A stretch of 64,000 bases of DNA from an uncultured bacterium. GTDB lineage: Bacteria > Babelota > Babeliae > Babelales > Vermiphilaceae. The position numbers and the translations under genes are program-made. The stretch covers positions 320,001 through 384,000 of the forward strand of contig OY969699.1 of NCBI GenBank assembly GCA_963702025.1. Reading direction: 5' to 3'. Below are positions 34,950 to 53,997 of this stretch, piece after piece. The notes beneath the pieces were generated by a model. That model did no database searches. It saw nothing but the letters and a program-made list of their open reading frames with translations, and had not been told where the DNA came from. How positions within the stretch are numbered: position 1 is the stretch's first letter; every line of letters begins with the position of its first letter.

Positions 34950-35153
34950 TAATATTCCTTTTATAGCAATAATATTTGACAAAAAAGTTGGTTAAAGTAC
35001 CCTATTTACTGTAGAAAACTCAGTTGTAATCACATAATCAATGTATCACAACCGCTAGTTTTTTCCCCCCGTAATAATTAATATCCCCCAACAAAAAAGC
35101 TTCCAGAAGAAGTTTTGCTTTTTACTGCAGTGGCAGTATTGGCAGGAGTTAGC

Positions 35154-37154
35154 ATGATCTTTTCTAAAAAAATAATAATGCCCCTCATCGCCCTTTTTAG
35201 CTTGTTCTATTTATCCGAGGTGGATGCAAAAAGTTGTTTGCTGCATAAAAAAGATTGTGACATTGAAATTGATGTATGGGGATTTTTTAGACCGGAAGTA
35301 TTTGCGGGAAAAAATTTTAATCTACTCAATAAAAGTATTCACCAAGATACGATTTTCTATTTCAGGCACACCAATGACTACTTTCTTGATTTAATCTATG
35401 GCAAAGAAACATATGGATGTCCGGCAGTAGAATTTAAGACCTCTGTACGTAATCGCGCAGTCTGGGGAAGCCCAAGCACTATTGCCTTAACCCTGCCAAC
35501 TACGCCGCGCATTGCAAAGATCGATGCGGGTGAGCATAACCACGCATTCCCACGGCTTTTCTTTTGGATGAGAGAAGTGTGGCTTAAGTTATCGCTTTCT
35601 GAATTGCTTAAGATGGATCTTAGTTGTGATCACAGCTTTACCCTTGGAGCATTTTCTTTTGAACTGGGCCGCGGTATTGCGTTGGGTGCTGCGTATGCTA
35701 TTGGTCAGGGGCCCCTTGGCTTTTATTCAGATGCCATGATCGATCAGTTTGCCTTTGGCTTTAAATATTCTGGCGGGTTCCTTAAAGATGTTCTGACATA
35801 TGATATTTATGGCGCTTTGTTGCAAAGTAGAAGCAATTCATTTAGTGAAACAAATAGGCCGATTCTTGCTAATGAGATTGGACATCGCGATCACCCAGCA
35901 CGTGGGTTTGGCAAAGATAACTACCTGATTGCCGGCCGCTTAAACTGGACCGTGTGCAATTCTGATGAATATGGCACCCTAGCATTTGAACCATATATGT
36001 TATATAACAATGATCCTGAGCAAAAAGTTGAGTTTCAGGCAGATGCTAAAAGCCAACTATGTACCCTTGGTTTTGCAGGAGAATATGTTAAGGGTCCTTT
36101 TGAATGTGGATTTGATGCAGCCTTTAACCGTGGCCATCAAACAGTCTTGCCATGGGATAGAAATCAGATCGTTCTTGAAAATTTTAATGGGATGATTGTT
36201 GGAGTAAATAATCACGTTAAAATTGAAAATGATAATGAGTTCCCTCAATATAATGGGCTAAAAGCGCCAAATGTTCCCGGCAGCAATGCGCAAAAAGCGA
36301 TTGACGCGCAAAATGCCGATGGAAATTCCAATTTTAATGGGCAGCCGGTACCTGGCGCGCAACAGTTGCAAGGTCTTGGGTACGCGCAGGGGACGCTGGA
36401 TCTAGTCAATGGAAAGTATAGGTTCCGCAACCGTAAAGTGAATGGTTATCAGGGCTGGATGTTTGTTGCGGATGCTTCCTATTGGGTATATAAAAATAAT
36501 GTGCAAGTGGCGGTAACTGGGGGTTATGCTTCTGGAGATCAAGATCCCAATTATCATCACAATGATCATGAATTTAATGGATTCATTGGATTGCAAGAAG
36601 TCTATGCAGGTAAACGGGTGAAAAGTGTATTCTTATTAGGAACCGTTGGCAAGGTGCGCCGTCCGGGTACGCAGCCTGAGTTGCCCTATGCTGATAAAGA
36701 TTACACCTCGGGGTATTCTGGATTTACCAACCTTGCATTCTTTGGTGCCGGCACCACGTGGAAGCCAAGTTTCTGCAGTAGTGAAAGTCGTGTGGTGATT
36801 AACCCGAACGTTTTTGCTTATTGGGCACCGCATCCGGGCCACAAATTTAACCCGTTCACTGGCAGAAATATTAAAGGTCTGCTTGCGGGCAAGTATATGG
36901 GAACCGAAGTAAACGCATTCTTAAGCTACTATCCGCTTGAAAGTGTAAAATGTTTTGTTATAGGCTCAGTATTTGTGCCGGGCCAATTTTTTACTGACCA
37001 TCGTGGCAAGCCGTTTAATACTGATGAGAAGAAGGAGCTCGATGCATGGCGGGAAAAGAATCCGAATCCGGAAAAAGCTGACTTTGGCACTTTGCCAAAT
37101 ATCCGCGATGATATTGGATATACCATTAATATTGGCGTGGAATTTGCTTTCTAA
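35154..37154 (+). CDS. Outer-membrane beta-barrel protein (porin-like)
   Basis: Signal peptide, aromatic/Gly-rich alternating strands, C-terminal beta-signal INIGVEFAF, own terminator. Confidence 0.75.
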   Translation: MIFSKKIIMPLIALFSLFYLSEVDAKSCLLHKKDCDIEIDVWGFFRPEVFAGKNFNLLNKSIHQDTIFYFRHTNDYFLDLIYGKETYGCPAVEFKTSVRNRAVWGSPSTIALTLPTTPRIAKIDAGEHNHAFPRLFFWMREVWLKLSLSELLKMDLSCDHSFTLGAFSFELGRGIALGAAYAIGQGPLGFYSDAMIDQFAFGFKYSGGFLKDVLTYDIYGALLQSRSNSFSETNRPILANEIGHRDHPARGFGKDNYLIAGRLNWTVCNSDEYGTLAFEPYMLYNNDPEQKVEFQADAKSQLCTLGFAGEYVKGPFECGFDAAFNRGHQTVLPWDRNQIVLENFNGMIVGVNNHVKIENDNEFPQYNGLKAPNVPGSNAQKAIDAQNADGNSNFNGQPVPGAQQLQGLGYAQGTLDLVNGKYRFRNRKVNGYQGWMFVADASYWVYKNNVQVAVTGGYASGDQDPNYHHNDHEFNGFIGLQEVYAGKRVKSVFLLGTVGKVRRPGTQPELPYADKDYTSGYSGFTNLAFFGAGTTWKPSFCSSESRVVINPNVFAYWAPHPGHKFNPFTGRNIKGLLAGKYMGTEVNAFLSYYPLESVKCFVIGSVFVPGQFFTDHRGKPFNTDEKKELDAWREKNPNPEKADFGTLPNIRDDIGYTINIGVEFAF

Positions 37155-40159: not shown

Positions 40160-40903
40160 TTATGCTGCTGCAACTACGAATTGAAGTGTAACTTTATTGA
40201 ATGAAGCAACTATTTTGTCAAGTTTCTTGCTGCCCGCAACTACTGATAAATGAAGTGCTTGCTGTTGACAGCTCAAAGGAATCCCTTGTGCGTCTCTTTT
40301 TTCGAATTTATGACGCATGAGTGAGTCTTGAAATTCCTTTTCAGCTTTATACTTTGCAAAAACCAGTTGTTTCTTTGCGATTTTTGCATCCATTTTAGTA
40401 ATACTTTCTTGTAACTTTTTGGCATAAGCAATTTGCTCAAGCGTAGGATTATAGATGCGATAGATTTTATAACCACCGTAACATATTACAATTACACCAA
40501 CGCCAACTGCTACATACGGTAAAACAGCTGGAGATGTTACGGCAAGAGCAGCTTTTTTAACGGCTAATGCTGCCACCTTTGCCTTAGCTGAAACAACTGC
40601 GGTTGCTGAACCAGCCAATGCAACCGCCTTATCAACAGTTTTAGACCCTGCCTCTTGCAGTCCAATCTTAAGATTCTCAGTTGCTGCAAGAAGTTTGTCA
40701 CCAGTTTCAGCACTTATAGCCTGAGCTTTCTTGCCAAGCTGGTCGATTGTTTTTATGCCCTCTTCGAAGGTAGGTTTTGCCTCGTTCCACGTATTAATGC
40801 CTACAGAACTACCTACGGCCCAAGAATCTCCAGAAAGAGATAATATCGATACAGAATTAATAAGAACAACTAAGATTAATTTATTACTATTTTTCATGTT
40901 CAT
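40160..40903 (-). CDS. Secreted protein with long Ala/Val-rich hydrophobic segment and coiled coil (paralog A)
   Basis: Shares YGGYK.YR.Y.PT.E.IA.AKK.Q and AQGIPL.CQ..A..L..VAGSK with 41494-42186. Confidence 0.8.
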   Translation of the reverse strand: MNMKNSNKLILVVLINSVSILSLSGDSWAVGSSVGINTWNEAKPTFEEGIKTIDQLGKKAQAISAETGDKLLAATENLKIGLQEAGSKTVDKAVALAGSATAVVSAKAKVAALAVKKAALAVTSPAVLPYVAVGVGVIVICYGGYKIYRIYNPTLEQIAYAKKLQESITKMDAKIAKKQLVFAKYKAEKEFQDSLMRHKFEKRDAQGIPLSCQQQALHLSVVAGSKKLDKIVASFNKVTLQFVVAAA

Positions 40904-40905
40904 TC

Positions 40906-41430
40906 CTATTGTTGAGCAGTTTCTAATTCGGTCTTTTTTTGCATAATTATAAGTAACTCATATTGTAGTTTTTCATACTGAACAATAAGATTCTCCAAAA
41001 TTAGATATTCGTTAATAATTCGTAGACAGAAAAATTTTTTAGATTCAAATTTCCCCAACATATCATTTGTAGAGTCTTTAAGGAATTCTTTAACCAATAA
41101 GCCTGTCGCTGCTTTTGATAAGAAAACTGCTTCGCGAAACGCATTAAAAGCCTTATCAAACTCTCCGGCTGCATTAATAATGGTTTTCCAGAATTCTTCT
41201 ACTTGCTCAGGTGATAGTTTTTTTTCTTTAACAGTGCGCTGTAAATCACCGATGATATTTGTTCGTATCGAATGCATATATGCATCTTGCTCTGCTATTC
41301 TTTTCCCCAATTCAGAGATTTGCATAAGCTTGTTTGCATATTCTGCATTGAGTTCTTGTAGGTTAGCATTAAGAAAAAATGCCTGAGTCAAACTAACGCT
41401 AAGAATGATACCTTTGAGAACATTAAACAT
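40906..41430 (-). CDS. Secreted coiled-coil helical protein
   Basis: Probable start MFNVLKG after AAGGA; signal peptide; heptad-rich. Confidence 0.7.
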   Translation of the reverse strand: MFNVLKGIILSVSLTQAFFLNANLQELNAEYANKLMQISELGKRIAEQDAYMHSIRTNIIGDLQRTVKEKKLSPEQVEEFWKTIINAAGEFDKAFNAFREAVFLSKAATGLLVKEFLKDSTNDMLGKFESKKFFCLRIINEYLILENLIVQYEKLQYELLIIMQKKTELETAQQ

Positions 41431-41493
41431 AGTGAGTCCTTTGAGATTGACGGTTGATGTAACTATTTTGTTGCTTATTACTATTCTCATTTA

Positions 41494-42186
41494 TTAATCG
41501 GAAGCAGCTTGAGGCGCATGGTGCTGTATATCAGAAACTATTTCTTCCACGCATTTACTACCAGCCACAATAGCAAGATTTACCGCTTCTTCTTGGCATG
41601 CTAAAGGAATTCCTTGTGCATTCTTCTTAGAATTAATATTCCTTATCAACGCTTCTTTAAATTCTGTTTCCCTTTTTAATTTATCTCGCTTAGCCTGAGC
41701 TCTTGCTATTTCTAATTCAGAATTTACAAGAGCTAATTGTATCTTTTTGGCCGATGCTATTTCTTCAGGCGTTGGATAATAGTAGCGGTAAGCTTTGTAC
41801 CCACCGTAACTGGCAGCTCCAATTGCAACAACAGGCATGGTAACGGGTGAAGCAACGACAGCGAGTGCCACAGCTTTTATTGTTAGTAACGAGCCTGCAA
41901 CTACAGTTGAGCTACCCCCTGCTGTAACCACGGCTGGCGCAATAGCAACTTTAGCAGTACCCATAACAACAGCCCCACCCATAACAATTTTAGCCGCAAC
42001 TACACCTGTCGTCATAGCAGTTCCTGCTAGCAATTTTTCGGTACAACTGGGCGAAGAAGGTTTATTAATAGCTAATTGTTGTATTTGTTCTTTATTGACG
42101 CAGCTATTGATAGGGCTACTGGCATAAATAGAAAGTGGCAGCACGAGTAAAGCGAGAAACTGACTTTTAAATGAAGGCGAGATCAT
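41494..42186 (-). CDS. Secreted protein with long Gly/Ala/Val-rich hydrophobic segment and coiled coil (paralog B)
   Basis: Signal peptide, ~75-aa nearly uncharged segment, motifs shared with 40160-40903. Confidence 0.8.
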   Translation of the reverse strand: MISPSFKSQFLALLVLPLSIYASSPINSCVNKEQIQQLAINKPSSPSCTEKLLAGTAMTTGVVAAKIVMGGAVVMGTAKVAIAPAVVTAGGSSTVVAGSLLTIKAVALAVVASPVTMPVVAIGAASYGGYKAYRYYYPTPEEIASAKKIQLALVNSELEIARAQAKRDKLKRETEFKEALIRNINSKKNAQGIPLACQEEAVNLAIVAGSKCVEEIVSDIQHHAPQAASD

Positions 42187-42262: not shown

Positions 42263-42394
42263 CTATGCGAATTGATTTATTTAATGAAAAATACTATATC
42301 TTTTATTGAAGAAATCAAGGCAAATGCCTATTGCTACAGCAGGTTGGAAAATATCATTACATTTTTTTACTCTTATTATCTGAAAAATTAAATA

Positions 42395-42420
42395 GAAAAA
42401 GGGAACCCTTTCGAGTTCCC
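42395..42420 (-). terminator. Intrinsic terminator ending the 43528-42478 cassette
   Basis: Minus strand GGGAAC-TCGAAAGG-GTTCCC-TTTTT. Confidence 0.75.
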
Positions 42421-42477
42421 ACACTCAGAAAAATCCGTCTTCACTAGATGGCTTTGTTGCACATGTAATAGGGCTCT

Positions 42478-42684
42478 TTAAACCTTGGCGACTCTTTCAT
42501 CGTCACCATTTTTTCTGACTCGATTACCTGTATATAAAACTAGGCTCATAACCAAAAAAGAAATAATAAAATTAATAATAGTTAACAGATCCTTATGCCC
42601 TTGTTGATAGAAAACGGTATACATAAGAATGCATGTAACAAAGCTATCCAGTAATAATATAAGTATTTCTTTCATTTTAATCAT
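42478..42684 (-). CDS. Small two-TM membrane protein
   Basis: Start ATG overlaps the upstream stop (ATGA); MIKMKEILILLLDSFV... with two hydrophobic helices. Confidence 0.6.
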   Translation of the reverse strand: MIKMKEILILLLDSFVTCILMYTVFYQQGHKDLLTIINFIISFLVMSLVLYTGNRVRKNGDDERVAKV

Positions 42685-42890
42685 TGATCCATTTGGGAAG
42701 TCCATTGTAGAAATGCACCCAAGAAAATGTAGCCCAGGCACATTCCCACATAGCACTCAAATGGCAAGTTAACAGCAGGATGAAGTCCAAGCCATATTGC
42801 CGTCTTATACATAGTTATAATAATGAAGAATATAATTAAAAAGCTTTTAAATTTCTTTTCAATGCATTTAATGTAAGTCATCATAGTCAT
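42681..42890 (-). CDS. Small two-TM membrane protein
   Basis: ATGA overlap with the stop of 42887-43528; two hydrophobic helices. Confidence 0.6.
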   Translation of the reverse strand: MTMMTYIKCIEKKFKSFLIIFFIIITMYKTAIWLGLHPAVNLPFECYVGMCLGYIFLGAFLQWTSQMDQ

Positions 42891-43528
42891 GGTAAAAAGG
42901 GAATCGCAGTGAAAAATGCCGCAGCAGCTAATGAGCCTGTTTCAACAGCGGCTATTGTTCCGGCTATCCCACCAGAAGATGTAACAACCGCAGCGGTAAG
43001 GGTTGCAGCTTCGGATGCATATCCTGCACCTACAATCGCGCCTGCTACAACTGTGGCGCCAGTTGTAGCTCCTGCAGTTGTACCAGCAACGAGGGCTCCT
43101 GTTAAAGCTCCTGCGGCACCACCGGTGGCAACTACTGCCGTTGTGGCTGCAGCTGCCGCTGTTCCGTAACAAAGAGTTTTAGTTGCCCAGTATGCAATTG
43201 CTCCTGATATTGGGCCACCGCCATTGCCGCGAACTTTTGCCAAAAGGGCATACTTGCCACCTTCATCTTTATTGATGCGGATATAACCATCACCCACAAA
43301 TTTTTCTAAGGCTTTATGTTGCGCAATGGCTCTAAGCAATGGATTCATATTATGCTTTTCAACACGATATGCCGCATTCTTATCTTCAACATAAAAATCT
43401 CTCTGATTTGTATACAGCTTAAGATCATTTGCTGATGATACCACATTTTGCTCTACCAGTTCCATTGTATGAACTAATGATGAGCTGAATAATAATAATG
43501 ATAAAGAAGTGATGTTACGTATCTTCAC
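42887..43528 (-). CDS. Secreted precursor: polar pro-domain, RGNGG motif, ~110-aa Gly/Ala/Thr-rich hydrophobic C-terminus
   Basis: Signal peptide then ME; YALLAKVRGNGGGP; C-terminus with repeated small-xxx-small motifs and very few charges. Confidence 0.8.
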   Translation of the reverse strand: MKIRNITSLSLLLFSSSLVHTMELVEQNVVSSANDLKLYTNQRDFYVEDKNAAYRVEKHNMNPLLRAIAQHKALEKFVGDGYIRINKDEGGKYALLAKVRGNGGGPISGAIAYWATKTLCYGTAAAAATTAVVATGGAAGALTGALVAGTTAGATTGATVVAGAIVGAGYASEAATLTAAVVTSSGGIAGTIAAVETGSLAAAAFFTAIPFLP

Positions 43529-43612
43529 GTATTCTTCCTAACGTTTACGTTGTTAATAAATATACAATTGCTTATTACTAGGAACTTCTTTTTTTTGATC
43601 AGATTCGCTACA
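43529..43612 (-). promoter_or_regulatory. Conserved leader, copy 2
   Basis: Minus strand CAAAAAAAAGAAGTTCCTAGT..TGTATA..AACGTAAACGTTAGGAAG. Confidence 0.55.
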
Positions 43613-43863
43613 GCTGAAACTGAATGCTCATTACTACAATGGGTCGGGAACTATCATAGGCAGATATTTTTTTTAAAAAAAGCATTATTTTTTGATTTGT
43701 TGCAATAATCGAATTGCGCTCGATCTGATCAGCGATAAGAAGCATGCGTTGCGCAAATTTTATGTTACGTTGCAAAAGTATAATTTTGTGAAGTTGTGCA
43801 ACAAGAAAAAACCGATGCGGTATTTAAGGCAGTCACTATACGTTAATTAACTAACCTATCAAG

Positions 43864-44163
43864 CTATAATTTCCAAGCAGTTGCTCGCGCGATAATTGCT
43901 TTTCTTTCATGTTCACTTACACCATTAAGATCATATAAATAAATAGTGTAAGGAATTTTGGTTTCGCTGAGTGCCGATTGTGCCTGGGCAATATCTTTTG
44001 TGCCGATAATTCTGCCAAGATCAAGCGCTATATCAATCTCAGGTTTCTTGCCCTCTGCATCATACGACTTTTCTTTGTTGCCATAATAATAAATAAGTAC
44101 GCCCGGAAAAATATCAGTTAAAATATGGATGATTTTTTTTTGGTCTTGTGAATTGATTGTCAT
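43864..44163 (-). CDS. Minimal nucleotidyltransferase (MNT)-like protein, degenerate
   Basis: IYYYG..EIDIALD and IPYTIYLYDLN resemble the MNT fold, but the FGS/DxD motifs are altered. Confidence 0.6.
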   Translation of the reverse strand: MTINSQDQKKIIHILTDIFPGVLIYYYGNKEKSYDAEGKKPEIDIALDLGRIIGTKDIAQAQSALSETKIPYTIYLYDLNGVSEHERKAIIARATAWKL

Positions 44164-44303: not shown

Positions 44304-45560
44304 ATGAAAATTGAAAAAATAGCCGGTAGAGAAATTTATGATGCGCGCGGTTGGCCAACCATAGAATGCGAACTCACTTTAGAAGATGGCTCATTTGTTA
44401 CCGGATCGGTGCCTGCGGGCATTTCAAAAAGTAAATTTGAAGCCTTTGAGATGCGTGATAATAGTGAACGCATGATGGGTAAAGGCGTGCTTGAGGCTAT
44501 CGATTCATTAGAATCAAAAATTGCACCATTGTTGATCGGGCAAGAACCAAATTTAGTGAGTATGGATTTGGCTATGATCGAACTGGATGGCACCCCCAAT
44601 AAATCAAAGCTTGGCGCTAATGCTATGCTTGCAGCCAGCATTGCGGTCTTGCGTGCTCATGCCACAGTGGAAGGTATGGAGCCTTATGAGCTGGTTGGTT
44701 ATTTGTGCGAATATAATTCAGTAACGTTGCCATTTGCTATGTTTAATATGATCGGTGGTGGCGCACATGTGCAAAACAACGTTCGCATTCAGGAGATGAT
44801 GGTGATTCCCATCGGCACCCAAAGTTTTAGAGCATGCATGGAAGCGGCAGTATTGCTTCATCACTATTTATATAAACTATTACAAAAAAATTTTTCCTGC
44901 GCATGGGTAACAGTTGAAGGGGCCTTAAGCGCAGATTTTAAAGATGATGCTCAAGCGCTGGATATTCTTATGGAAGCGATCGAAGCGGTGCAAAAAAAGA
45001 CAAACCACCGATTTTTAATTGCGCTTGACGTTGCGGCATCACAATTTTATGATAGCAAGAAAAATAAATATGACTGGTTTGGTAAAACTTTAACATCAAA
45101 TGATCTTATTGATCTCTATGAACGCTTAAGTAAAAAATATCCAATTTTTTCTATCGAGGATGGTCTTGCTGAAACTGATGAGAAAGGTTGGATCTCTTTA
45201 ACTGCAAAAATGCGAGAAAAAATACAACTAATTGGTGATGATATTTTTGCAAGCAACCCAAACCTTATTGCCAATGGTATTGAAAAAGGTATTGCTACCG
45301 GATCGTTGATCAAGCCAAATCAGATTGGGACGATCACTGAAACGCTTCAATCAATAAAATTATGCCGTGAATACGATATGACCTGCATTGTTTCTCATCG
45401 TTCTTCAGAAACCAATGACAGTATTATCGTTGATCTTGCTGTTGGCACGAGCGCCGGTTATATCAAAGCAGGTGGCCCTGCTCGCGGTGAGCACTTAGCC
45501 AAGTATAATGAACTTCTACGAATAGAAGATAACCTTATGCTTTCGCTGTTGAATTCTTAA
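44304..45560 (+). CDS. eno: Enolase (divergent)
   Basis: REIYDARGWPT, LDGTPNKSKLGANA, LDVAAS, SIEDG, GDD, KPNQIGT, SHRS, KYNELLRIE. Confidence 0.93.
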   Translation: MKIEKIAGREIYDARGWPTIECELTLEDGSFVTGSVPAGISKSKFEAFEMRDNSERMMGKGVLEAIDSLESKIAPLLIGQEPNLVSMDLAMIELDGTPNKSKLGANAMLAASIAVLRAHATVEGMEPYELVGYLCEYNSVTLPFAMFNMIGGGAHVQNNVRIQEMMVIPIGTQSFRACMEAAVLLHHYLYKLLQKNFSCAWVTVEGALSADFKDDAQALDILMEAIEAVQKKTNHRFLIALDVAASQFYDSKKNKYDWFGKTLTSNDLIDLYERLSKKYPIFSIEDGLAETDEKGWISLTAKMREKIQLIGDDIFASNPNLIANGIEKGIATGSLIKPNQIGTITETLQSIKLCREYDMTCIVSHRSSETNDSIIVDLAVGTSAGYIKAGGPARGEHLAKYNELLRIEDNLMLSLLNS

Positions 45561-48180
45561 ACGGATTTTCCATGTCCGCTAAAATCACTTTTAAATCATT
45601 TGGTTTGGCATTATTCTGCTCAGCAGTTTTTTTGGGGCTCGCGATCACGAATGATTTTTCAGGTATTTGGGCAGTCGCTTTATTTTGAGCCAATAATTGT
45701 TGATCTGCCGGAGTCTCCATTTTTTGTGGTGATGGCGATGCGAGCACGATAGTATCATCTTTTTGTATTTCATCTTTTTCTGGCTCCGCAATTTTTGCCA
45801 AAATGCGCCGCTCTTTGCGAACATCAAAGATTGTTGGTGCGATGAATTCATCTTGAGCAATGAAATCATCAATATCTGTTTCAGCGTCATCACGTTGTGC
45901 TTTGAAGAACCAACGCGTGATTGGATCGCGAAGATTATCAAATAACATTCCTTCGCGAGAATAGCTTTTTATCAACTGAACCTGATTCTTGGTATACGCC
46001 CCAATACCGCCTCGTATGCGAGGCTCAATAATGGTTGGAGAAATAAATACCGTAAGATTATTTTTATTGGTTGTATTAGTTCGATTTTTGAACATCCAGC
46101 CGATGATCGGTATTTTGGCTAGCAAGGGGGTTTCAAGTTGTTCCACCGTGGTGTCAACGCGTGTTAAGCCGCCAAGCGCTAAGATTTGCCCAGTGCGCAC
46201 ATTCGCACTGGTAGTAACGTTTCGCGTTATTCTGTTAGCGGTGTTTTCTGATTGCACCCCAACGTTGCTAAAATCGGTCGCGGGAAACTCAAACTGATTA
46301 ATATCGACAACCACTTTTAAATTAACCATATCTCCTGAGCTAATGCGTGGAGTAATTATAACCTTTAATGCTGCGGGGATCCATTTACGAGTTTGTGTAG
46401 TGGTACCACCGGTGCTACCAGAACCCTGGTCTCTGGTCAAACGTTGTTCTTCCAATACAATTTCTGCCTCTTTATTATTGGTTGCGATTAAGTGCGGATG
46501 AGAAAGCACCTTAGAATTATCAAGAAACTTGCGAACCTGTGCGATGCCCCATGTTTGCCCTGTTCCAGCATCGTTGAAGGAAAAGAGTGTGGTTCCTTGA
46601 GAAAAGAAGGTGGCCGCACTCAAGCAAGGTGTAGTGCCTCCCGGATCGCAATCAGCAGTTATTTGTTGATTTTGATTGTATGCCTTGCGTAACAAATCAG
46701 ATTGAATGGTTGCCGGATTTGCAACCGCATTGGTCAAGAACGTACTATTACCGCTGCCGGTGTTTAACATTGATGATTGAAAGTTAACTTTGTCTGGCAA
46801 CCCTGAATTGAGCGGATTGCGCACATTGGCACCCAAGGAGGCAATATCTTGTATGGTTAAATCGGCGATCAGTACTTCAATGATCACCTGGCGCTCAGGA
46901 ATATCAAGCTCTTCTATTAATTTTTTTATACGCACATAATCATCATTACGAGCGGCAATAATTAATGAGTTGCTACCCATTGATGAAGTTCCCGGTTGTT
47001 CGCCGCTAATTGTTTCTGCTTGGTCAGCAATAACAATAACTTCATCAAAGAAACGTTCAACCCCACCTTGCGTGCCTTCTGTCTTTGACTGCTCTGTGCC
47101 ACCTTGACGTTGGTTCTTTAAGATATTTTGCAAGAGAGGGGCGAATGGTTTTGCATCCAAATATTGCAATTGGTATACATGCAAAATCGATTTTCCCGAT
47201 TCTAATTCAACATCGATATATTTATGAATAAATTCGCGAACACGTTCGATTGCTTGTGGTTTGCCAAAAACAATTAAGCGATTGCCACGCTTATCGGGAA
47301 CAATTTTCACCTTTTTAAAATAGGTGGCATTATTGGGTTGCTTTATGCCTAAACGTAATTGATTTGCATCAGCTGCTGTTCTTAATAATTGTTCATTGAA
47401 TAAATTTGCAACAACTTCTGCTGGCAAGTAACGCAATTGTATGATTTCGGGTTTTTCTTGTGCTTCAACTTGATCTAGGGTAACAATAATATTCATTGCT
47501 GCCCTGATATTATTTGCTTTATCAGTGATTAGAAGACTATTTGTTTGTGGATCCAAGGTATACCATGATGTATCAGCAGGTAACACATCTTTTAGTATGC
47601 CCAAAATCTCATTTTGAGGATTTTGTGCAAAGTCGGATATTCGTATATTTGAAAAATAATAAAGATAACGAATTCTTTTATCAATATTGGGAATTTCTTC
47701 CGGTTTTACAATATATAATGGTAATGGTTCTCTGGTCACCTCTTTTGTTGTTTTTACAATACTATAGGTGTCTGCTTTTGCAATCATTGAATAGCCTGCC
47801 ATATCAAGCAAGGTATATAAAATATCCCATGCCTCATCAACGGTTATTTTTTCTTCAAGATGCAAGGTAATATTTGAATTTATTGGGTTAAATACCGGGA
47901 AAATAATATTTATTTCTTTTAAAGATGCCAGAAAATTAATAATATCTATGAGTGGTTCATTTTCAAAATAAAAATTGATCATTTTTTCTGGTTTTGGACG
48001 TGATGATCTTCTTCTATTCTGGGCATCCGGAATTTGATTAATTTTATCATGCAAAACAAAATGGGTATCTTCTGCCTTTGCGAGTAAATCAGCATTGCAG
48101 AAAAAAAATAGCAAAAATAATAAATGTAATCTTCTAAAATTGGATTTTTTTCGAGAGAGGTTATAATTCATAGTCGACAC
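45535..48180 (-). CDS. gspD: Type II secretion secretin GspD (copy 2)
   Basis: N0-N3 repeats, LDIPERQVIIEVLI, VLSHP, ITPRIS, PLLAKIPIIGWMFK, LTVFISPTII. Confidence 0.9.
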   Translation of the reverse strand: MSTMNYNLSRKKSNFRRLHLLFLLFFFCNADLLAKAEDTHFVLHDKINQIPDAQNRRRSSRPKPEKMINFYFENEPLIDIINFLASLKEINIIFPVFNPINSNITLHLEEKITVDEAWDILYTLLDMAGYSMIAKADTYSIVKTTKEVTREPLPLYIVKPEEIPNIDKRIRYLYYFSNIRISDFAQNPQNEILGILKDVLPADTSWYTLDPQTNSLLITDKANNIRAAMNIIVTLDQVEAQEKPEIIQLRYLPAEVVANLFNEQLLRTAADANQLRLGIKQPNNATYFKKVKIVPDKRGNRLIVFGKPQAIERVREFIHKYIDVELESGKSILHVYQLQYLDAKPFAPLLQNILKNQRQGGTEQSKTEGTQGGVERFFDEVIVIADQAETISGEQPGTSSMGSNSLIIAARNDDYVRIKKLIEELDIPERQVIIEVLIADLTIQDIASLGANVRNPLNSGLPDKVNFQSSMLNTGSGNSTFLTNAVANPATIQSDLLRKAYNQNQQITADCDPGGTTPCLSAATFFSQGTTLFSFNDAGTGQTWGIAQVRKFLDNSKVLSHPHLIATNNKEAEIVLEEQRLTRDQGSGSTGGTTTQTRKWIPAALKVIITPRISSGDMVNLKVVVDINQFEFPATDFSNVGVQSENTANRITRNVTTSANVRTGQILALGGLTRVDTTVEQLETPLLAKIPIIGWMFKNRTNTTNKNNLTVFISPTIIEPRIRGGIGAYTKNQVQLIKSYSREGMLFDNLRDPITRWFFKAQRDDAETDIDDFIAQDEFIAPTIFDVRKERRILAKIAEPEKDEIQKDDTIVLASPSPQKMETPADQQLLAQNKATAQIPEKSFVIASPKKTAEQNNAKPNDLKVILADMENPFKNSTAKA

Positions 48181-48190
48181 TCCAATTCAT

Positions 48191-48751
48191 TCATGCCGTC
48201 TCTTTGGGCATCATGGCGGCAATTTTAATATCAACATCAATGGTTCGTGGGATCTTTTTTGATCTACTTATTTCTAGCTCTTTTACAAAGAGCCGTTTAT
48301 TTTGATTGATTTCATTTAAAAATTCAGTCAGTTGTTTCATGGTAATACCGCTTAATTGATACGTTGCCACATTCTCGAGATAATTATCTTCTCGCGGTGT
48401 TGGCACAACTTTTGCTACCGTAACATTATTCTGCATGGAGATGCCAACCTTTTCAAGGGTCTCTTGAACATGTGGTTGTATTTTAAAGTACGGATCCTCT
48501 TCTAGCAATGCTGTAACCTGCGCACGTTCTTTTTGGACGCGTACTGCTTTGTTGAGAATCTTTTTTGTTTCTTGGCGCTGTTCATTGAGTGTGGCAAGCT
48601 CATTTTCCAAACGATTAATTGATCGGTAATAAAAAAAGAGGATCATACCAATTATGATTAAAAATAAGCCACCTGTAATCGCTAGGTATTGATACCAGCT
48701 TTTCTCATCGAGCGCAGCAATTCGTTGTTGAAGATTATCAAAAAAAGACAT
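48191..48751 (-). CDS. gspM: T2SS GspM/PilO-like protein
   Basis: Single TM, coiled coil and ferredoxin-like C-terminus (LSGITMKQLTEFL); follows the GspL-like gene. Confidence 0.7.
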   Translation of the reverse strand: MSFFDNLQQRIAALDEKSWYQYLAITGGLFLIIIGMILFFYYRSINRLENELATLNEQRQETKKILNKAVRVQKERAQVTALLEEDPYFKIQPHVQETLEKVGISMQNNVTVAKVVPTPREDNYLENVATYQLSGITMKQLTEFLNEINQNKRLFVKELEISRSKKIPRTIDVDIKIAAMMPKETA

Positions 48752-50373
48752 TAACGCTCCCGTTTTGTTTTTTTGGCCAAGCGAAGGGTCATGCTGAATT
48801 TAGTTTCGTGAACTGGCTCTACATAAGAGAATAATTTTGATTCTTTCAATTCGCGCTCTAACGTTGCAAGTTCTGGATAGTCTCTTACTTGTGCTTTGAG
48901 CACAATAGTATCGGGCGTCATAGTTAATTTTTCTATTTCAAGGCCAAGTTCATTTTTATTTAATTTGGTAGTCAATTCCATTAAATATTCGAGGAAATTT
49001 GTTCGCGCTGTCGCAGAGAATGCTGACCACACTTTTTCTTCTTGATTCACAATATTATTTGCCATCCCCAATGCTTCTTCTAATGAGCCGACATCGGCAG
49101 GCATTTTCTTTATGTGTTCTTTGAGTGATAGAATTGCATCTTGTTCAGATTGATAGGCTTCTCGTTTTAGTTTTCTTGTTTGCCAGAAGGTATTAAACAA
49201 GAGTCCGCCCAAAATAAGGCCTGCAAGCGCGCAACCTGCAATAAACTGTTGTGCAAAGAGATTGGTTTGAGAAAGAGCAAAATCTTTTTGGCGCAAATTA
49301 AAATCGGTTGTTGCGGATAATGGCAATGCCGTTGCCAAACTTACCAAGTTTATTTGTGGAACGGCACTTTTCGCGTTAACTCCATAGCCATTATGTATCA
49401 AAGTGTTGATGCTAAAAATTTCTGTTTTTATATGGGAGAGATCCGTGATGAGTTCAGGCAATCCTTTGATTGTAGCGCTGGTGCCAAAAATAATGATCTT
49501 ATTTATGGATTGTGATGGCTTGGATTGCATCACAAATGATTGTAATGTAAAAAGAATATCATTAAAAAAAGCAGAAAAAGATTCTTTCATGGGTCCAATA
49601 AGCGCATTATTATCAGGCTCAAGGCCAAATCGAATAATTTGCTCCATTGCTTCTTGCTCGGTTGTGTGTGTTCGTTGTGCAATTAATCGCGCTTGATCAA
49701 TTAGACCCTTTGGCAAGGTTCGTATAAAACGAAGTTGGCCATCATAGATATAGGCCATGCGCGTACCACTCGGCTCAATTTCCAGAAGTACAACGGCTCC
49801 TTTTTGATCGGCATATGTTGGGACGATTTTATATAATCCATACAGGGCAAAAATATCTATAGTAATTTTTTCGGGTTGGATGCCCGCGGCTTCAAAAAGA
49901 GCAAGATGTTGCGCCATGTATTGATTTTGAACTGCCGCCACCAAAACTTCTGAGCTTTTTTCTTCGGGAAGCTCTTTGGTGACTATGCAATCAATAACAG
50001 TATCTTGTAAAGGAAATGGTAATAACGGTTCAACCTCATAGCCAATAACTTTTTTTATTGTTGAAATTCCCATGAAAGGCAATTTTAATTCTTTAAAAAT
50101 TGCGTTAGAGCTTGGTAATGCGGAAATGATGGAATCTACGGGTGGACACTGCGCTAGTATTATTTTAATAGCATCGGCAACTTGATCTTGATATGGTACG
50201 GTTGCAGTTGATGCAAGTGGTATATCGAAATTTTTTTCGATAGTAATCTCTTTTTTTCGCGCCAAAATAAGCGTTGCTTTGACGGCAGTCTTGCCAATAT
50301 CAAAACCAAGTATGCGTGTAGAAAAGAGAAAATAATTACCAATACTTTGAGGAATAAATAGATTCTTAATCAT
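48751..50373 (-). CDS. gspL: T2SS GspL (PilM-like actin fold + TM + PilN-like domain)
   Basis: ILGFDIGKTAVK, LKLPF, YEVEPLLPF, single TM, periplasmic domain. Confidence 0.78.
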   Translation of the reverse strand: MIKNLFIPQSIGNYFLFSTRILGFDIGKTAVKATLILARKKEITIEKNFDIPLASTATVPYQDQVADAIKIILAQCPPVDSIISALPSSNAIFKELKLPFMGISTIKKVIGYEVEPLLPFPLQDTVIDCIVTKELPEEKSSEVLVAAVQNQYMAQHLALFEAAGIQPEKITIDIFALYGLYKIVPTYADQKGAVVLLEIEPSGTRMAYIYDGQLRFIRTLPKGLIDQARLIAQRTHTTEQEAMEQIIRFGLEPDNNALIGPMKESFSAFFNDILFTLQSFVMQSKPSQSINKIIIFGTSATIKGLPELITDLSHIKTEIFSINTLIHNGYGVNAKSAVPQINLVSLATALPLSATTDFNLRQKDFALSQTNLFAQQFIAGCALAGLILGGLLFNTFWQTRKLKREAYQSEQDAILSLKEHIKKMPADVGSLEEALGMANNIVNQEEKVWSAFSATARTNFLEYLMELTTKLNKNELGLEIEKLTMTPDTIVLKAQVRDYPELATLERELKESKLFSYVEPVHETKFSMTLRLAKKTKRER

Positions 50374-52916
50374 GCCCGAATCTCCTTATTAGATTCGCGA
50401 CGTTGCGATGATACATTCTTTCGTTTAGGGCCTTGTGCTACAGTAAAGCTTTCATTATTTTTTACCGGAATATCATTTTTTGCTATTGGTGTCACGATAT
50501 CTCGTGGCATTTTGGACTTTTCAGCCGTTTCTCGTTGTTTGCGATAGACAAATTCATCGGTGGCTGCTTCATTTAAATTTTTACCATCAAAGAACCATCG
50601 GCTTACCGGATCGCGTCTTTGGTTTGTTTCATACATATCATCAACGGTATCGGTGTAATCTGAAATATGCGTATTAGTAAATGCAATCATCGCTTCATCA
50701 GTTTCCGGCTCAATAATACGTGATGATATTAAAATTAATAAATTAGATTTGGATGCCGTTTTCTGCTTATTTTTAAAGAGCCAACCAACAACGGGAATAT
50801 CACCTAAAACTGGCACTTTAGTGGTTACCGAGTCAATATTAGTTTGAATGAGTCCGCCCAGCGCAAGCACTTCTTTATTGGACACGATTGTTTTGGTTTT
50901 TATCCTGCGTGAAGTGCGAACCGCATTATTTGGATTTGCTTCGCCTACGAATTGGTTGAGCTGCACTTCAATTTCAAGAACTATCATACCATCAGAATTG
51001 ATTTGTGGTGTTATCTCAACCCGCAATTCTGCCGGCGCATCACCAAATGTGTCAACAGGGGTTGTTGCTCCTATAATGGTACCGGTAGTCACCCGTCGCA
51101 CTTCACCAAGAGATACAACTGCTTTTGTTTTATTTGTTGCAATTAAAAACGGGTTGGCAAGGACCTGCACATTGCTTGCCGTTTGGAGGGCCGAAACAAT
51201 TGCCCAAACGTTTAAGGAATCGCCCAAAGAGATAATGGTATTACCCGCGGCAATACCACTGGAAACTAAATTGAGTAAATTGCCTAACAAACGATCAATG
51301 CCCGCGCCATTCGGGTTGGTTTGTACGGTGCCGGTACCAAAGAGCCCTGAGGTTTGAAATTTGGTATTACCGAAAAATCCTTCAGTGCCCGGAACTCTGC
51401 TGCGCATTTGAGTGCCAAGTTGTTGATTGGTGTTGAGGCTCACTGCAAGCAGGAGCACTTCAATGGCAACCTGTGGTTGGGGAGCATCAAGCTGGGTAAT
51501 AACTTCTTTAGCCTTGAGAAAATCCTCGTAATCTCCCTTTATTATGAGTCGATTTGTCTCCGGTTCTGCGGTAAAAAAAATTGGTTTCATATATTTGTCG
51601 CCACCACGAACACCACCGCTTTTACCCGCTTCGGTATTTGCGCCCCACTGAGTTGCTCTGTTCATAATTTCAGCAATCACTTTTGCGTCAGCATATTTTA
51701 TCGGTAAAACATGCAGTGGCGAATAAGGTTGCGATAGTTCAACGTCTACTGATTGAGTTATAAAATCTTCAATACGTTTTATTGAGTCTGCTGGGCCCAA
51801 CAATATTAAAGAGTTTGTGCGAGGCTCTGCAAATATTCCCACATTATCAGGAAAGTACGAGCTTGATGGTGCTTTCCGACCTTGGAAAAAGCGTTGTTGC
51901 GCGATATCTTTGTCGCTGGTGCCTGCAAGAGACTTATACAATTGTTCCACTTCTCGCGCATCTGCTCTTCGCAGTTTGAGTACCGACATTGCTTGTGGCA
52001 TGGTTAATTTATCAAGCTCTTTAACAATGTTCATCAAACTTTTGATATTGTAGGCTTTATCAGTGATCAAAAAGCCTTTCAATTCATTTAACATAACCAG
52101 ATTGGCGCCGGGGCTCTTGAGAGAATTGACAACGCCATCAATTGTTTTTAAATCAGCATTTTCAATAAAATAGACATAACGTATCATCTCATCATTGCTG
52201 GGCAGTGTTGAGGGGGAAACACCGATATAGGCGGGCAATGGAGATTTTTTTGCAAGATCCAAAGTGACGATTCGTTTTATTCTTGGGCTTGCTTCGGCAA
52301 TTACGGTGAATCCTGAAATCTCCAAAAATGCCAAGAAGATATCCCAGGCTTCCCTCTTGGTAAGTAAGCTGTGTGTTTTAAATGAAATTCTATTTTTTTT
52401 GACCGACTTTACTAGGGGGTTCTGAGACATGGGGCTAATTGCATCGTCAGTGATGAAGGTGATATCAAACAGATCTGCAATTTGATTGATTAACGTTTCA
52501 AGATCCGCATCTTCAAAATTAAACTCAATGCTTGGTTCATCTGCTTCAGGGGCGGGCAGAGGAGGCGTAGGTTCATTGGTTTTTTCCGCTTTTGCTTCAG
52601 GCTTTTTCTCTTCTTTCTTTTCTTCGATGGATTCGGTTACAACTGGGGTGGCTGGCGATTGAGCGGCCTGCTGCTCTTCCGCTGATGCAATTTTTTCGCC
52701 GAGTTCACTCGAAATGCCTATTTTTGAGAGTTTTTCATCTCTAAAAGTCTCAGCAATATCTATCGATGTATTGAGTGAAGAAGCCTTGTTTGGCATCGAT
52801 TTTTTTTCTTGCTTACCGCCGCAGCCACTTATAAGGCTCAGTGCAAAAGCAAGACACAAAAAAATGTATATGCGATTCATTGGCATAAATTTACTCATTG
52901 AGGTTTGATAACACAT
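50370..52916 (-). CDS. gspD: Type II secretion secretin GspD (copy 1, predicted lipoprotein)
   Basis: Lipobox LISGC; FNFEDADL N0 domain; LDAPQPQVAIEV; KVPVLGDIPVVGWLFK. Confidence 0.9.
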   Translation of the reverse strand: MCYQTSMSKFMPMNRIYIFLCLAFALSLISGCGGKQEKKSMPNKASSLNTSIDIAETFRDEKLSKIGISSELGEKIASAEEQQAAQSPATPVVTESIEEKKEEKKPEAKAEKTNEPTPPLPAPEADEPSIEFNFEDADLETLINQIADLFDITFITDDAISPMSQNPLVKSVKKNRISFKTHSLLTKREAWDIFLAFLEISGFTVIAEASPRIKRIVTLDLAKKSPLPAYIGVSPSTLPSNDEMIRYVYFIENADLKTIDGVVNSLKSPGANLVMLNELKGFLITDKAYNIKSLMNIVKELDKLTMPQAMSVLKLRRADAREVEQLYKSLAGTSDKDIAQQRFFQGRKAPSSSYFPDNVGIFAEPRTNSLILLGPADSIKRIEDFITQSVDVELSQPYSPLHVLPIKYADAKVIAEIMNRATQWGANTEAGKSGGVRGGDKYMKPIFFTAEPETNRLIIKGDYEDFLKAKEVITQLDAPQPQVAIEVLLLAVSLNTNQQLGTQMRSRVPGTEGFFGNTKFQTSGLFGTGTVQTNPNGAGIDRLLGNLLNLVSSGIAAGNTIISLGDSLNVWAIVSALQTASNVQVLANPFLIATNKTKAVVSLGEVRRVTTGTIIGATTPVDTFGDAPAELRVEITPQINSDGMIVLEIEVQLNQFVGEANPNNAVRTSRRIKTKTIVSNKEVLALGGLIQTNIDSVTTKVPVLGDIPVVGWLFKNKQKTASKSNLLILISSRIIEPETDEAMIAFTNTHISDYTDTVDDMYETNQRRDPVSRWFFDGKNLNEAATDEFVYRKQRETAEKSKMPRDIVTPIAKNDIPVKNNESFTVAQGPKRKNVSSQRRESNKEIRA

Positions 52917-53997
52917 TTTGTGTTGGGCGGCTGCCCTTCTCTAGCATATTTGCTTTTTCTCTATTTCTAATTTCTTCCAAGGTTGGAGCAAAAGATTTTT
53001 TCTGTTCCAGCTGTTTGCGTTGCTCTTCTTCTTTTTTTTCTTGCGTTTGTTTAACGGCCCCGACATCTTGCTTGCGCGGTTGCACTTCATGCAGCACATA
53101 ATGCAATACAATTTCTCTATTATTTCTTGAGACGGTCACTGAAACAATGTCATCTGTCTTTAAGCTCGTTATTTGATTATAAATAGTCAAGCGATTTTGC
53201 GTTTGATCAACAGGAATGTCATTTATCTTAAGAATAACATCTTCTCTTAATAAGCCTAGTGCTGCTGCCAGTGAGCCAGGACCGGTATTGTTAATACGAG
53301 CGCCGACGCTTTCCCCTTGGCGATATGCCGTAGTTACTTCAAGCGTATCGATAAATTGGCCAAGGTTTTGTATGCGATTAATGAATTCGGCAGTATTTAC
53401 CGTGTAGCGATATTCGCCAGTTGGGGTTATGACATTGTCCCAACTATCAATATTTGCGTAGCTTGGATCGAGTTTGGCGTCTTTTTCCCGCATGTAAATT
53501 ACTTCTTGTTGACCATTTGATCGCATGAGAATAACTTTGTTGCTAAAAATGCGTATTAATTGTGCATCTTCGATAATGTCCCCTACGCGATATATCGCTT
53601 CTCTGTCGGTACGATTATCTCTTATTATAGCCCTATTTTTTGTGTCATCGGTTCGCACAACAACTACCCCTTTCAGGGTTATTGGTAGCGGCTCAACAAA
53701 TTGCGGCTTTGGTTCCTCCGGTACCCGAATTGGAAGGGGAGAAGGCGGTTCGGGAGCTGGGCCGACACTCTCAAATTTTTCCGGGAGAAGCTCTTTTTGA
53801 TAGGTATCAAAAAGGTCATTTTCATAAATTTTACTAATGTTGACCGTTGTCGCTTCAGCCTTAATCGGGGCTCGGTATGGGGCGGGTTCGATAGATTCTC
53901 GCTCAGGCAAGGCTGGCCGTGCAAAATAGATAAAACCTGCACTGAGCAGGCCAAAAAGAAATAATGTGCTGTTGATGATCCAGAATGGCTGTCTCAT
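52891..53997 (-). CDS. gspC: T2SS GspC (TM, HR domain, PDZ)
   Basis: LKGVVV..RAII..YRVGDII..VIL..NGQQEV HR domain; LGLLREDVILKIND PDZ. Confidence 0.85.
   Translation of the reverse strand: MRQPFWIINSTLFLFGLLSAGFIYFARPALPERESIEPAPYRAPIKAEATTVNISKIYENDLFDTYQKELLPEKFESVGPAPEPPSPLPIRVPEEPKPQFVEPLPITLKGVVVVRTDDTKNRAIIRDNRTDREAIYRVGDIIEDAQLIRIFSNKVILMRSNGQQEVIYMREKDAKLDPSYANIDSWDNVITPTGEYRYTVNTAEFINRIQNLGQFIDTLEVTTAYRQGESVGARINNTGPGSLAAALGLLREDVILKINDIPVDQTQNRLTIYNQITSLKTDDIVSVTVSRNNREIVLHYVLHEVQPRKQDVGAVKQTQEKKEEEQRKQLEQKKSFAPTLEEIRNREKANMLEKGSRPTQNVLSNLNE

Follow-up and report, generated by a model that had tools for sequence, protein, structure and literature searches.

Colicin V exemplifies the class II double-glycine bacteriocins and microcins, Gly/Ala-rich hydrophobic peptides that follow a Gly-Gly and are encoded upstream of a coupled, small transmembrane (TM) immunity gene. 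Circular bacteriocins have conserved ends with a middle of variable length between them. Polymorphic toxins of the Sec/PT-HINT type consist of a signal peptide, a constant N-terminal part, and a variable C-terminal part preceded by a release point, and have a linked partner; their Hint domains release whatever follows them (PMC3482391). [quoted passage not shown] They are Amoebophilus-specific, are described in terms of anchoring and clustering, and are without immunity genes, while cleavage goes unmentioned in the parts available (PMC3482391, PMC3417536). GrUBCEP12, from an animal (nematode) parasite of plants, is a secreted fusion with real ubiquitin that is split inside the host, yielding an N-terminal unit and a peptide from the C-terminus (PMC4312480). 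In AvrPphB, cutting exposes an internal Gly as an acylation site in the host (PMC2708883), and AvrPphB, ORF4, and NopT all cut themselves on the host side, thereby baring a Gly for fatty acylation (PMC2708883, PMC4951486). Babeliales/Dependentiae isolates, the relatives of the bacterium considered here, are parasites of protists (PMC6561590).

Here, we describe a cassette of three minus-strand genes in a 64,000-nt stretch of contig OY969699.1 (the window), which derives from an uncultured member of the Babeliae with a genome of 1.6 Mb that is 95% complete. The first gene (42887-43528, GTG start) encodes a 213-aa precursor composed of a predicted Sec signal peptide (aa 1-21, 43466..43528; judged by eye from the sequence), a folded prodomain (aa 22-104, 43217..43465; predicted from an AF2 model, a profile, and junction counts) that ends in a strand and R-G-N-G-G, and a hydrophobic tail of 109 aa (aa 105-213, 42887..43216; delimited by composition) that starts with Gly-Pro and ends with Pro. 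Two genes for small two-TM proteins follow, each coupled to the preceding gene by an ATGA overlap: a 69-aa protein (42681..42890), which is a candidate cognate immunity protein based on its cluster and a profile match, and then a 68-aa protein (42478..42684), which a profile match points to as a diverged second copy of the same family. A sequence-only reading of the window had proposed this order of a precursor and two coupled TM genes, and all three were found where it placed them, on one strand and with both overlaps present.

Upstream of the precursor lies a leader with a probable promoter region (43529..43660, minus strand) that is common to the two paralogous loci of the genome, and blastn matched the leader DNA only at these two paralogs (best E 3e-11). 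A promoter scan of the leader called none; a TATGAT hexamer at 43653-43658, absent from the scan calls, was spotted by eye, and comparison with Rfam returned no match of note. The residue at position -1 of the signal peptide is Thr in the window precursor and Ala in both paralogs. It is directly followed by Met-Glu, a start common to many ORFs of the genome, as a crude pattern of a signal plus [ACSG]M[EQDN] fits 201 of its 1470 ORFs. At the other end of the cassette, an intrinsic-terminator-like hairpin with a T run (42395..42420, minus strand; hairpin 42401-42420) was called with an 8-pair stem. The terminator that had been proposed is therefore present as a hairpin and T run, but the scan found four hairpin-type sites against 3.3 expected in shuffles, and this site alone is not above chance; both paralogs also have hairpins at the corresponding place, by eye. 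RNA contigs from two runs of one study, which as assembled contigs cannot show transcription, cover only the 3′ end of the precursor cassette (42336-42625) and a flank.

Judged from sequence, the cassette has the genomic features of Sec/HINT polymorphic toxin-immunity systems: a constant N-terminal part with interchangeable cargo (in three paralogs), a partner that tracks the cargo and, in some precursor homologs, PT-HINT itself. The release step before the cargo is supplied by PT-HINT in two homologs (L026, L054) and is presumed for the window protein. It differs from polymorphic toxins in two respects: where these have a peptidase, most members of the family have a non-catalytic 83-aa domain that ends in R-x-x-G-G, and Pfam and NCBIfam contain no match to the cargo, a short, uncharged hydrophobic peptide. 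The nearest described idea, likened by description, appears to be APD1/APD2, which shares with our precursor a conserved domain after the signal peptide, varied effectors, and a bacterium inside protists; the window precursor is set apart from it by the points of description given above, and the lipobox is missing, as there is no Cys in the first 104 residues. Like GrUBCEP12, the precursor may be a secreted fusion that is divided by the host, whereas the prodomain gives no ubiquitin match and partner genes are present.

With class II bacteriocins, the cassette shares a Gly-Gly before a hydrophobic peptide and a TM gene downstream. Unlike in these bacteriocins, the tail is preceded by 104 residues, with a signal-like start and a folded domain that ends in a strand. 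C39 peptidase exporters, on which the classical double-glycine export route depends, are absent from the window genome and were found in 2 of 261 genomes across the phylum, both as partial matches. Given this near absence and a long leader that consists of a folded 83-aa domain behind a signal-like peptide, we reject both class II membership and C39 export, and the comparison drawn earlier with GG-cleaved bacteriocin precursors is not supported as far as the classical route is concerned. For circular bacteriocins, an informal reading of the loci noticed no DUF95/ABC genes of their type.

The prodomain is polar, with 13 K/R and 11 D/E residues in the window protein, where it ends in AKVRGNGG. 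Across the family it spans 83 aa with R-[G/L/I/V]-x-G-G at its end, and the hydrophobic tails behind it are interchangeable. The genome has three precursor copies and no further ones; the prodomains of these paralogs are 77% common and their leader DNA is common to all, while their tails measure 109, 59, and 58 aa. Pfam and NCBIfam gave no match of weight to the three cassette proteins, in line with the statement of the sequence-only reading that it recognised no described family. A search of openly available literature likewise listed no description of the precursor family, and an earlier description may exist.

A protein search with the precursor gave 101 matches among 8000 scored candidates, and within the window's phylum, which homolog names identify as Babeliae, a full-length precursor profile matches 88 of 261 genomes. 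With a profile of the prodomain only (A2), the family widens to 1159 clusters at 50% identity, 718 of them at E < 1e-10. It also occurs in phages of Babeliae, in Chlamydiae, and in two proteobacterial lineages, and named homologs come from Candidatus Babeliales/Dependentiae, Chlamydiae, and proteobacterial MAGs. Of 400 genomes sampled from the phylum to which a Chlamydiae record belongs, 23 were matched by A2 and 35 by a broader profile (A5), with one chlamydial genome left unscored in both counts; A2 also matches one gammaproteobacterial MAG and, in another proteobacterial order, 4 of 62 genomes. The alignment of divergent copies to A2 has a probability of 98.5%, although these copies were chosen with A2 and are not fully independent of it. 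One copy is encoded by a cultured strain, Neochlamydia sp. S13. A tblastn search of plasmids and phages with a Babeliae prodomain gave no match.

In the AF2 model of the prodomain (mean pLDDT 85.9), four strands are followed by two helices and then two more strands, and the GG extends from the last of these. This predicted order of elements presumably differs from the beta-grasp order of ubiquitin, and we take the last strand to be in register with the ubiquitin C-terminus. Ubiquitin-family profiles matched none of 61 members in one set and none of 32 in a second. A fold search with the full-length model gave no clear match (best Z 6.8, rmsd 3.6, 66 residues aligned, to generic helices). With the prodomain model, the best match was the SAS-6 head (Z 4.2, rmsd 2.8, 71 residues aligned) and at E 0.001 other fold searches with it returned nothing; the matches listed included no ubiquitin-like entry. 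Sequence searches of the PDB and the ESM Atlas gave no usable match. The prodomain is thus not a ubiquitin-family protein by sequence, and the ubiquitin-family domain suggested earlier finds no counterpart in Pfam matches or in the predicted order of elements. Self-cleavage was considered and rejected, as Cys, His, and Ser are all missing from the columns that reach ≥55% conservation in 288 prodomain rows, which would call for a protease in trans.

Several lines of evidence indicate that the R-x-x-G-G junction is very likely a cleavage site. Among 144 new proteins in the listed A2 matches, the junction was complete in 139 (five were dropped). Here, P10 is L/I/V in all 139, P5 is Arg in 129, P2 is Gly in 137, and P1 is Gly in 132 (Ser, Ala, or Asn in the other 7), and the first residue after the junction is Gly in 127; these counts are partly circular, as the ranking profile itself holds the motif. 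The RGxGG junction of the earlier reading is thus conserved in homologs, whereas its motif was drawn too narrowly, P4 being Gly in 65 and L/I/V in 62 of the 139. A C-terminal strand that ends in a diglycine, with Arg at P5, is a ubiquitin-type feature. P4 is Leu in ubiquitin, unlike the Gly found in about half of the prodomain family.

Independent evidence comes from homologs that reach the same tail by another route. In P0073, P0080, P0101, and the loci L026 and L054, a Hint domain ending in HN directly precedes the same tail, with PT-HINT above the cut-off in L026 and L054, and in the phage-borne P0084 and P0087 (loci L090, L091) only a signal-like peptide and Lys-Pro stand before it. The Hint-fused and signal-only homologs thus share a mature start, and these routes converge on the residue after the GG. 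Based on this, we consider cleavage of the window precursor after Gly104 to be highly probable.

Copies of the prodomain from outside Babeliae are mostly without a signal-like peptide and stand in front of ankyrin repeats, GTPase-like domains, and other cargo. Among 43 non-hydrophobic fusions (paralogs included, hydrophobic-tail copies and five rows without a full GG left out, and one register corrected by hand), 24 have Gly and 11 have Met directly after the GG. Ten of the 24 Gly fusions have a G-x-x-x-S start; they fall into five unrelated sets, and six come from one related set. In a set of related chlamydial proteins (L113, L114, L120, L121, L123, L124), the prodomain is joined to a Ser/Asn-rich cargo with a myristoylation-like Gly start. 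Cargo that begins with Met or a myristoylation-like Gly would be sensible if the new N-terminus arises in a eukaryotic cytosol, and such starts suggest cutting in the host cytosol. The G-x-x-x-S fusions may be compared to AvrPphB, ORF4, and NopT, from which they differ in that these proteins cut themselves, while the prodomain has no conserved catalytic residues. The prodomain can also be internal: in L132 (262-2520, minus strand), it lies within a longer protein with an inverse-autotransporter-like start, a J-domain-like segment (by eye), the prodomain, GG-Met at the cargo border, and a methyltransferase-like cargo. Of nine hydrophobic-tail copies outside Babeliae, three pass the rule for a TM partner, and none is convincing on inspection.

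The tail of the window precursor contains 1 K/R and 2 D/E residues and is 63% Gly, Ala, and Thr. In the model it is helical, with pLDDT 76-87 at its ends and 50-68 in its middle. Across homologs, the tail keeps its sequence at both ends and differs in the length of its middle. Similarity between tails is uncorrelated with similarity between prodomains (rho -0.01). Pfam and NCBIfam models, including those for circular-bacteriocin precursors, match none of 14 tails, and no proteins >373 aa with this tail were found, which is weak evidence. The Gly-Pro start of the window tail is a poor myristoylation site. One homolog (L053/P0054; L053:1129-1662, plus strand) has no prodomain; instead, the 50 aa between its signal and the same tail include 7 K/R and no D/E, and we take this segment to resemble a mitochondrial presequence. 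On sequence grounds, the tail is predicted to be a mature, membrane-active peptide.

Short TM genes recur behind the hydrophobic tails. A short TM ORF follows 62 of 82 hydrophobic-tail precursors (Babeliae and phage loci), compared with 136 of 1234 ordinary ORFs of the genome; among the remaining precursors, the next gene is another precursor in four cases, and 16 have neither behind them. The 69-aa ORF belongs to a cluster of 16 members, all of them behind long YWxTK tails that follow a prodomain, a Hint domain, or a bare signal. Against a family profile built without them, the 69-aa ORF scored best of 12,246 frames (E 1.9e-11) and the 68-aa ORF second (E 0.0037), a match that places both in one two-TM family. 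Similar tandem pairs of partners occur in L022, L011, and L089. Behind the two short-tail paralogs of the genome lie TM genes of a different family (111-114 aa), and three long tails have partners from an STM3941-like family (match below the cut-off). Over 56 loci, similarity between partners follows the tail (rho 0.15, p 0.016) and not the prodomain (rho -0.06, p 0.81), a weak covariation that is not one-to-one and in which kin are not independent and 26 of 62 partners are singletons. Partners that track the tail type rather than the prodomain are as expected of cognate immunity genes, and we regard the two small membrane proteins as candidate immunity proteins that probably shield the producer. 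That the tail is toxic to membranes and that this toxicity is coupled to immunity seems to us somewhat more probable than the opposite.

If the prodomain is cut in trans, the question becomes by which enzyme. The protease families searched were C39, C48, and USP. C48 peptidases were found in 2 of 80 genomes of the family, and USP-type peptidases in 90 of the 261 phylum genomes, with up to nine matches per genome. A point against a ubiquitin-type protease is that USP-type enzymes usually read the ubiquitin body plus its tail. The window genome has one USP gene, unlinked to the cassette. Beside it, at L073:3156-3941 (minus strand), lies a gene for an ankyrin-like protein whose signal-like peptide precedes a basic segment similar to a mitochondrial presequence. 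According to the available part of a 2026 review (PMC13720258), just a few USPs are known from bacteria. In four loci of three genomes and two families (G203 twice, G205, G177), a USP gene with Cys/His/Asp motifs and a signal-like start lies directly upstream of the precursor, and all four of these precursors are without the P5 Arg; the four loci may reflect one event. An obligate USP of the bacterium's own was rejected, as no USP was matched in 53 of 88 precursor genomes and the co-occurrence is not significant (p 0.22), so that most would need another enzyme. The wide distribution of the prodomain points to the host as the source of the protease, and a ubiquitin- or Ubl-type protease of the host cytosol is the candidate that we favour as the usual enzyme, with modest confidence. 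In the available parts of two recent reviews, we found no bacterial effector that is matured by host deubiquitinases (PMC13720258, PMC12751079).

Combining these observations, we propose that the cassette encodes a polymorphic pro-toxin that is armed by a ubiquitin-type protease inside the protist. The 213-aa precursor would be exported by Sec and reach the host cytosol, with the prodomain keeping the tail soluble and inert until then. A ubiquitin-type protease of the host would cut after R-G-N-G-G, and the freed, proline-capped 109-aa tail would insert into and damage membranes, most likely those of co-resident rival bacteria, while the two small membrane proteins would shield the producer. 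As a complete chain of steps, this falls slightly short of an even chance. Should the tail be toxic, we lean towards a bacterial rather than a host target, as the diversity of tails, the matched and tandem partners, and the carriage by phages favour rival bacteria. Against this stand the near lack of positive charge in the tail and the absence of an evident way into the target bacterium. The presequence-like segment of L053/P0054 favours a host target, and after the same cleavage the tail may act as a host-directed membrane effector (on the mitochondrion, the vacuole, or in lysis), with the TM proteins shielding or chaperoning it across the producer's own envelope. We regard this as unlikely: the presequence-like case is a single sequence, and the many tail types with their matched partners fit bacterial conflict better. 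It would agree with the ankyrin and GTPase-like cargo that the prodomain carries elsewhere and with the observation that copies without a signal-like peptide are also without a TM partner. Chromulinavorax, moreover, replicates wrapped in the host mitochondrion and lyses its host (PMC6561590); on the other side, host-directed effectors of endosymbionts are without immunity genes in the available account of Zhang et al. (PMC3482391).

The protease may also be of bacterial origin, in which case a secreted USP or other envelope protease of the bacterium would free the tail and no host enzyme would be needed. The four USP-linked precursors look as if fitted to a private enzyme by their loss of the P5 Arg, the window genome has its unlinked USP, and a G1 peptidase is encoded near the cassette in three phage loci. 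The many precursor genomes without a USP, the rarity of C39 and C48, and the possible single origin of the four linked loci make this route improbable. We hold it to be similarly improbable that the precursor stays uncleaved as a module for secretion, anchoring, or clustering, with the GG as a flexible hinge and the tail as a structural membrane protein or a cyclised product. A conserved N-terminal domain on polymorphic C-termini is the very pattern of APD1/APD2, for which anchoring has been proposed (PMC3482391), and the conserved tail ends around a middle of variable length are reminiscent of circular bacteriocins. Such a module would leave unexplained why Hint domains end at the identical residue, and Met directly after the GG in 11 fusions would have no clear purpose unless cut; in L132, with its internal prodomain, GG-Met stands at the cargo border. 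Returning to the pro-toxin armed by the host, its widest form would be that a portable prodomain in unrelated intracellular bacteria copies only the C-terminal strand of ubiquitin on a different fold and is cut by host deubiquitinases, giving the cargo a designed N-terminus (Met, myristoylatable Gly, or Gly-Pro), and that Babeliae and their phages use it to arm bacteriocin-like peptides inside the protist against co-infecting bacteria. This broader idea is tentative, and we are more inclined to doubt than to accept it.

If true, bacterial proteins would be matured by ubiquitin-type proteases of the host, by way of a domain without the sequence of ubiquitin. It would also account for the way in which effectors that depend on an export signal at the N-terminus can still present a eukaryote-style N-terminus. 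Cutting of a non-ubiquitin prodomain by host deubiquitinases across lineages would amount to a new principle of effector maturation. Babeliae, a little-studied phylum, would gain a toxin-immunity system with testable cognate pairs, and the prodomain profile offers a way to pick out candidates for delivery to the host among more than a thousand unannotated clusters.

The cassette had been described as self-contained, which is contradicted by two neighbouring gene families that travel with precursor loci. Family X (41494..42186, minus strand; no Pfam match) has a signal-like start, a Gly/Ala/Val-rich hydrophobic stretch, and a helical end with two Cys, and a second copy, assigned by sequence family, lies at 40160..40903 (minus strand). 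Between them, family Y (40906..41490, minus strand) has a signal-like start, is helical, and recurs in precursor loci. In a set of 99 loci, some of which were fetched twice, X occurs in 18 and Y in 14; all three copies of X and three of four copies of Y in the genome adjoin precursor loci. Both families are predicted to be secreted, and this X-Y-X stretch (40160-42186) travels with the cassette in genomes and phages; X and Y could be delivery or pore partners.

Phage carriage is seen for the tail on eleven viral contigs, and in the nine that were read, the precursor and TM gene stand together among phage genes. The pair sits among morphogenesis genes, with a portal gene in L096. The phage contigs (L090-L100, up to about 38 kb) combine the cassette with other predicted secreted proteins, and some encode a G1 (Peptidase_A4) protease, which is confirmed by Pfam for L091. 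In the window itself, a 99-aa ORF upstream of the cassette (43864-44163, minus strand) looks nucleotidyltransferase-like by eye and has no Pfam match. A type II secretion-like run lies 2 kb from the cassette (45535-53997, minus strand), with an 881-aa secretin-like ORF and GspL/GspM-like ORFs recognised by eye, and a 679-aa ORF that ends in Phe (35115-37154, plus strand) appears, also by eye, to encode an outer-membrane-protein-like product.
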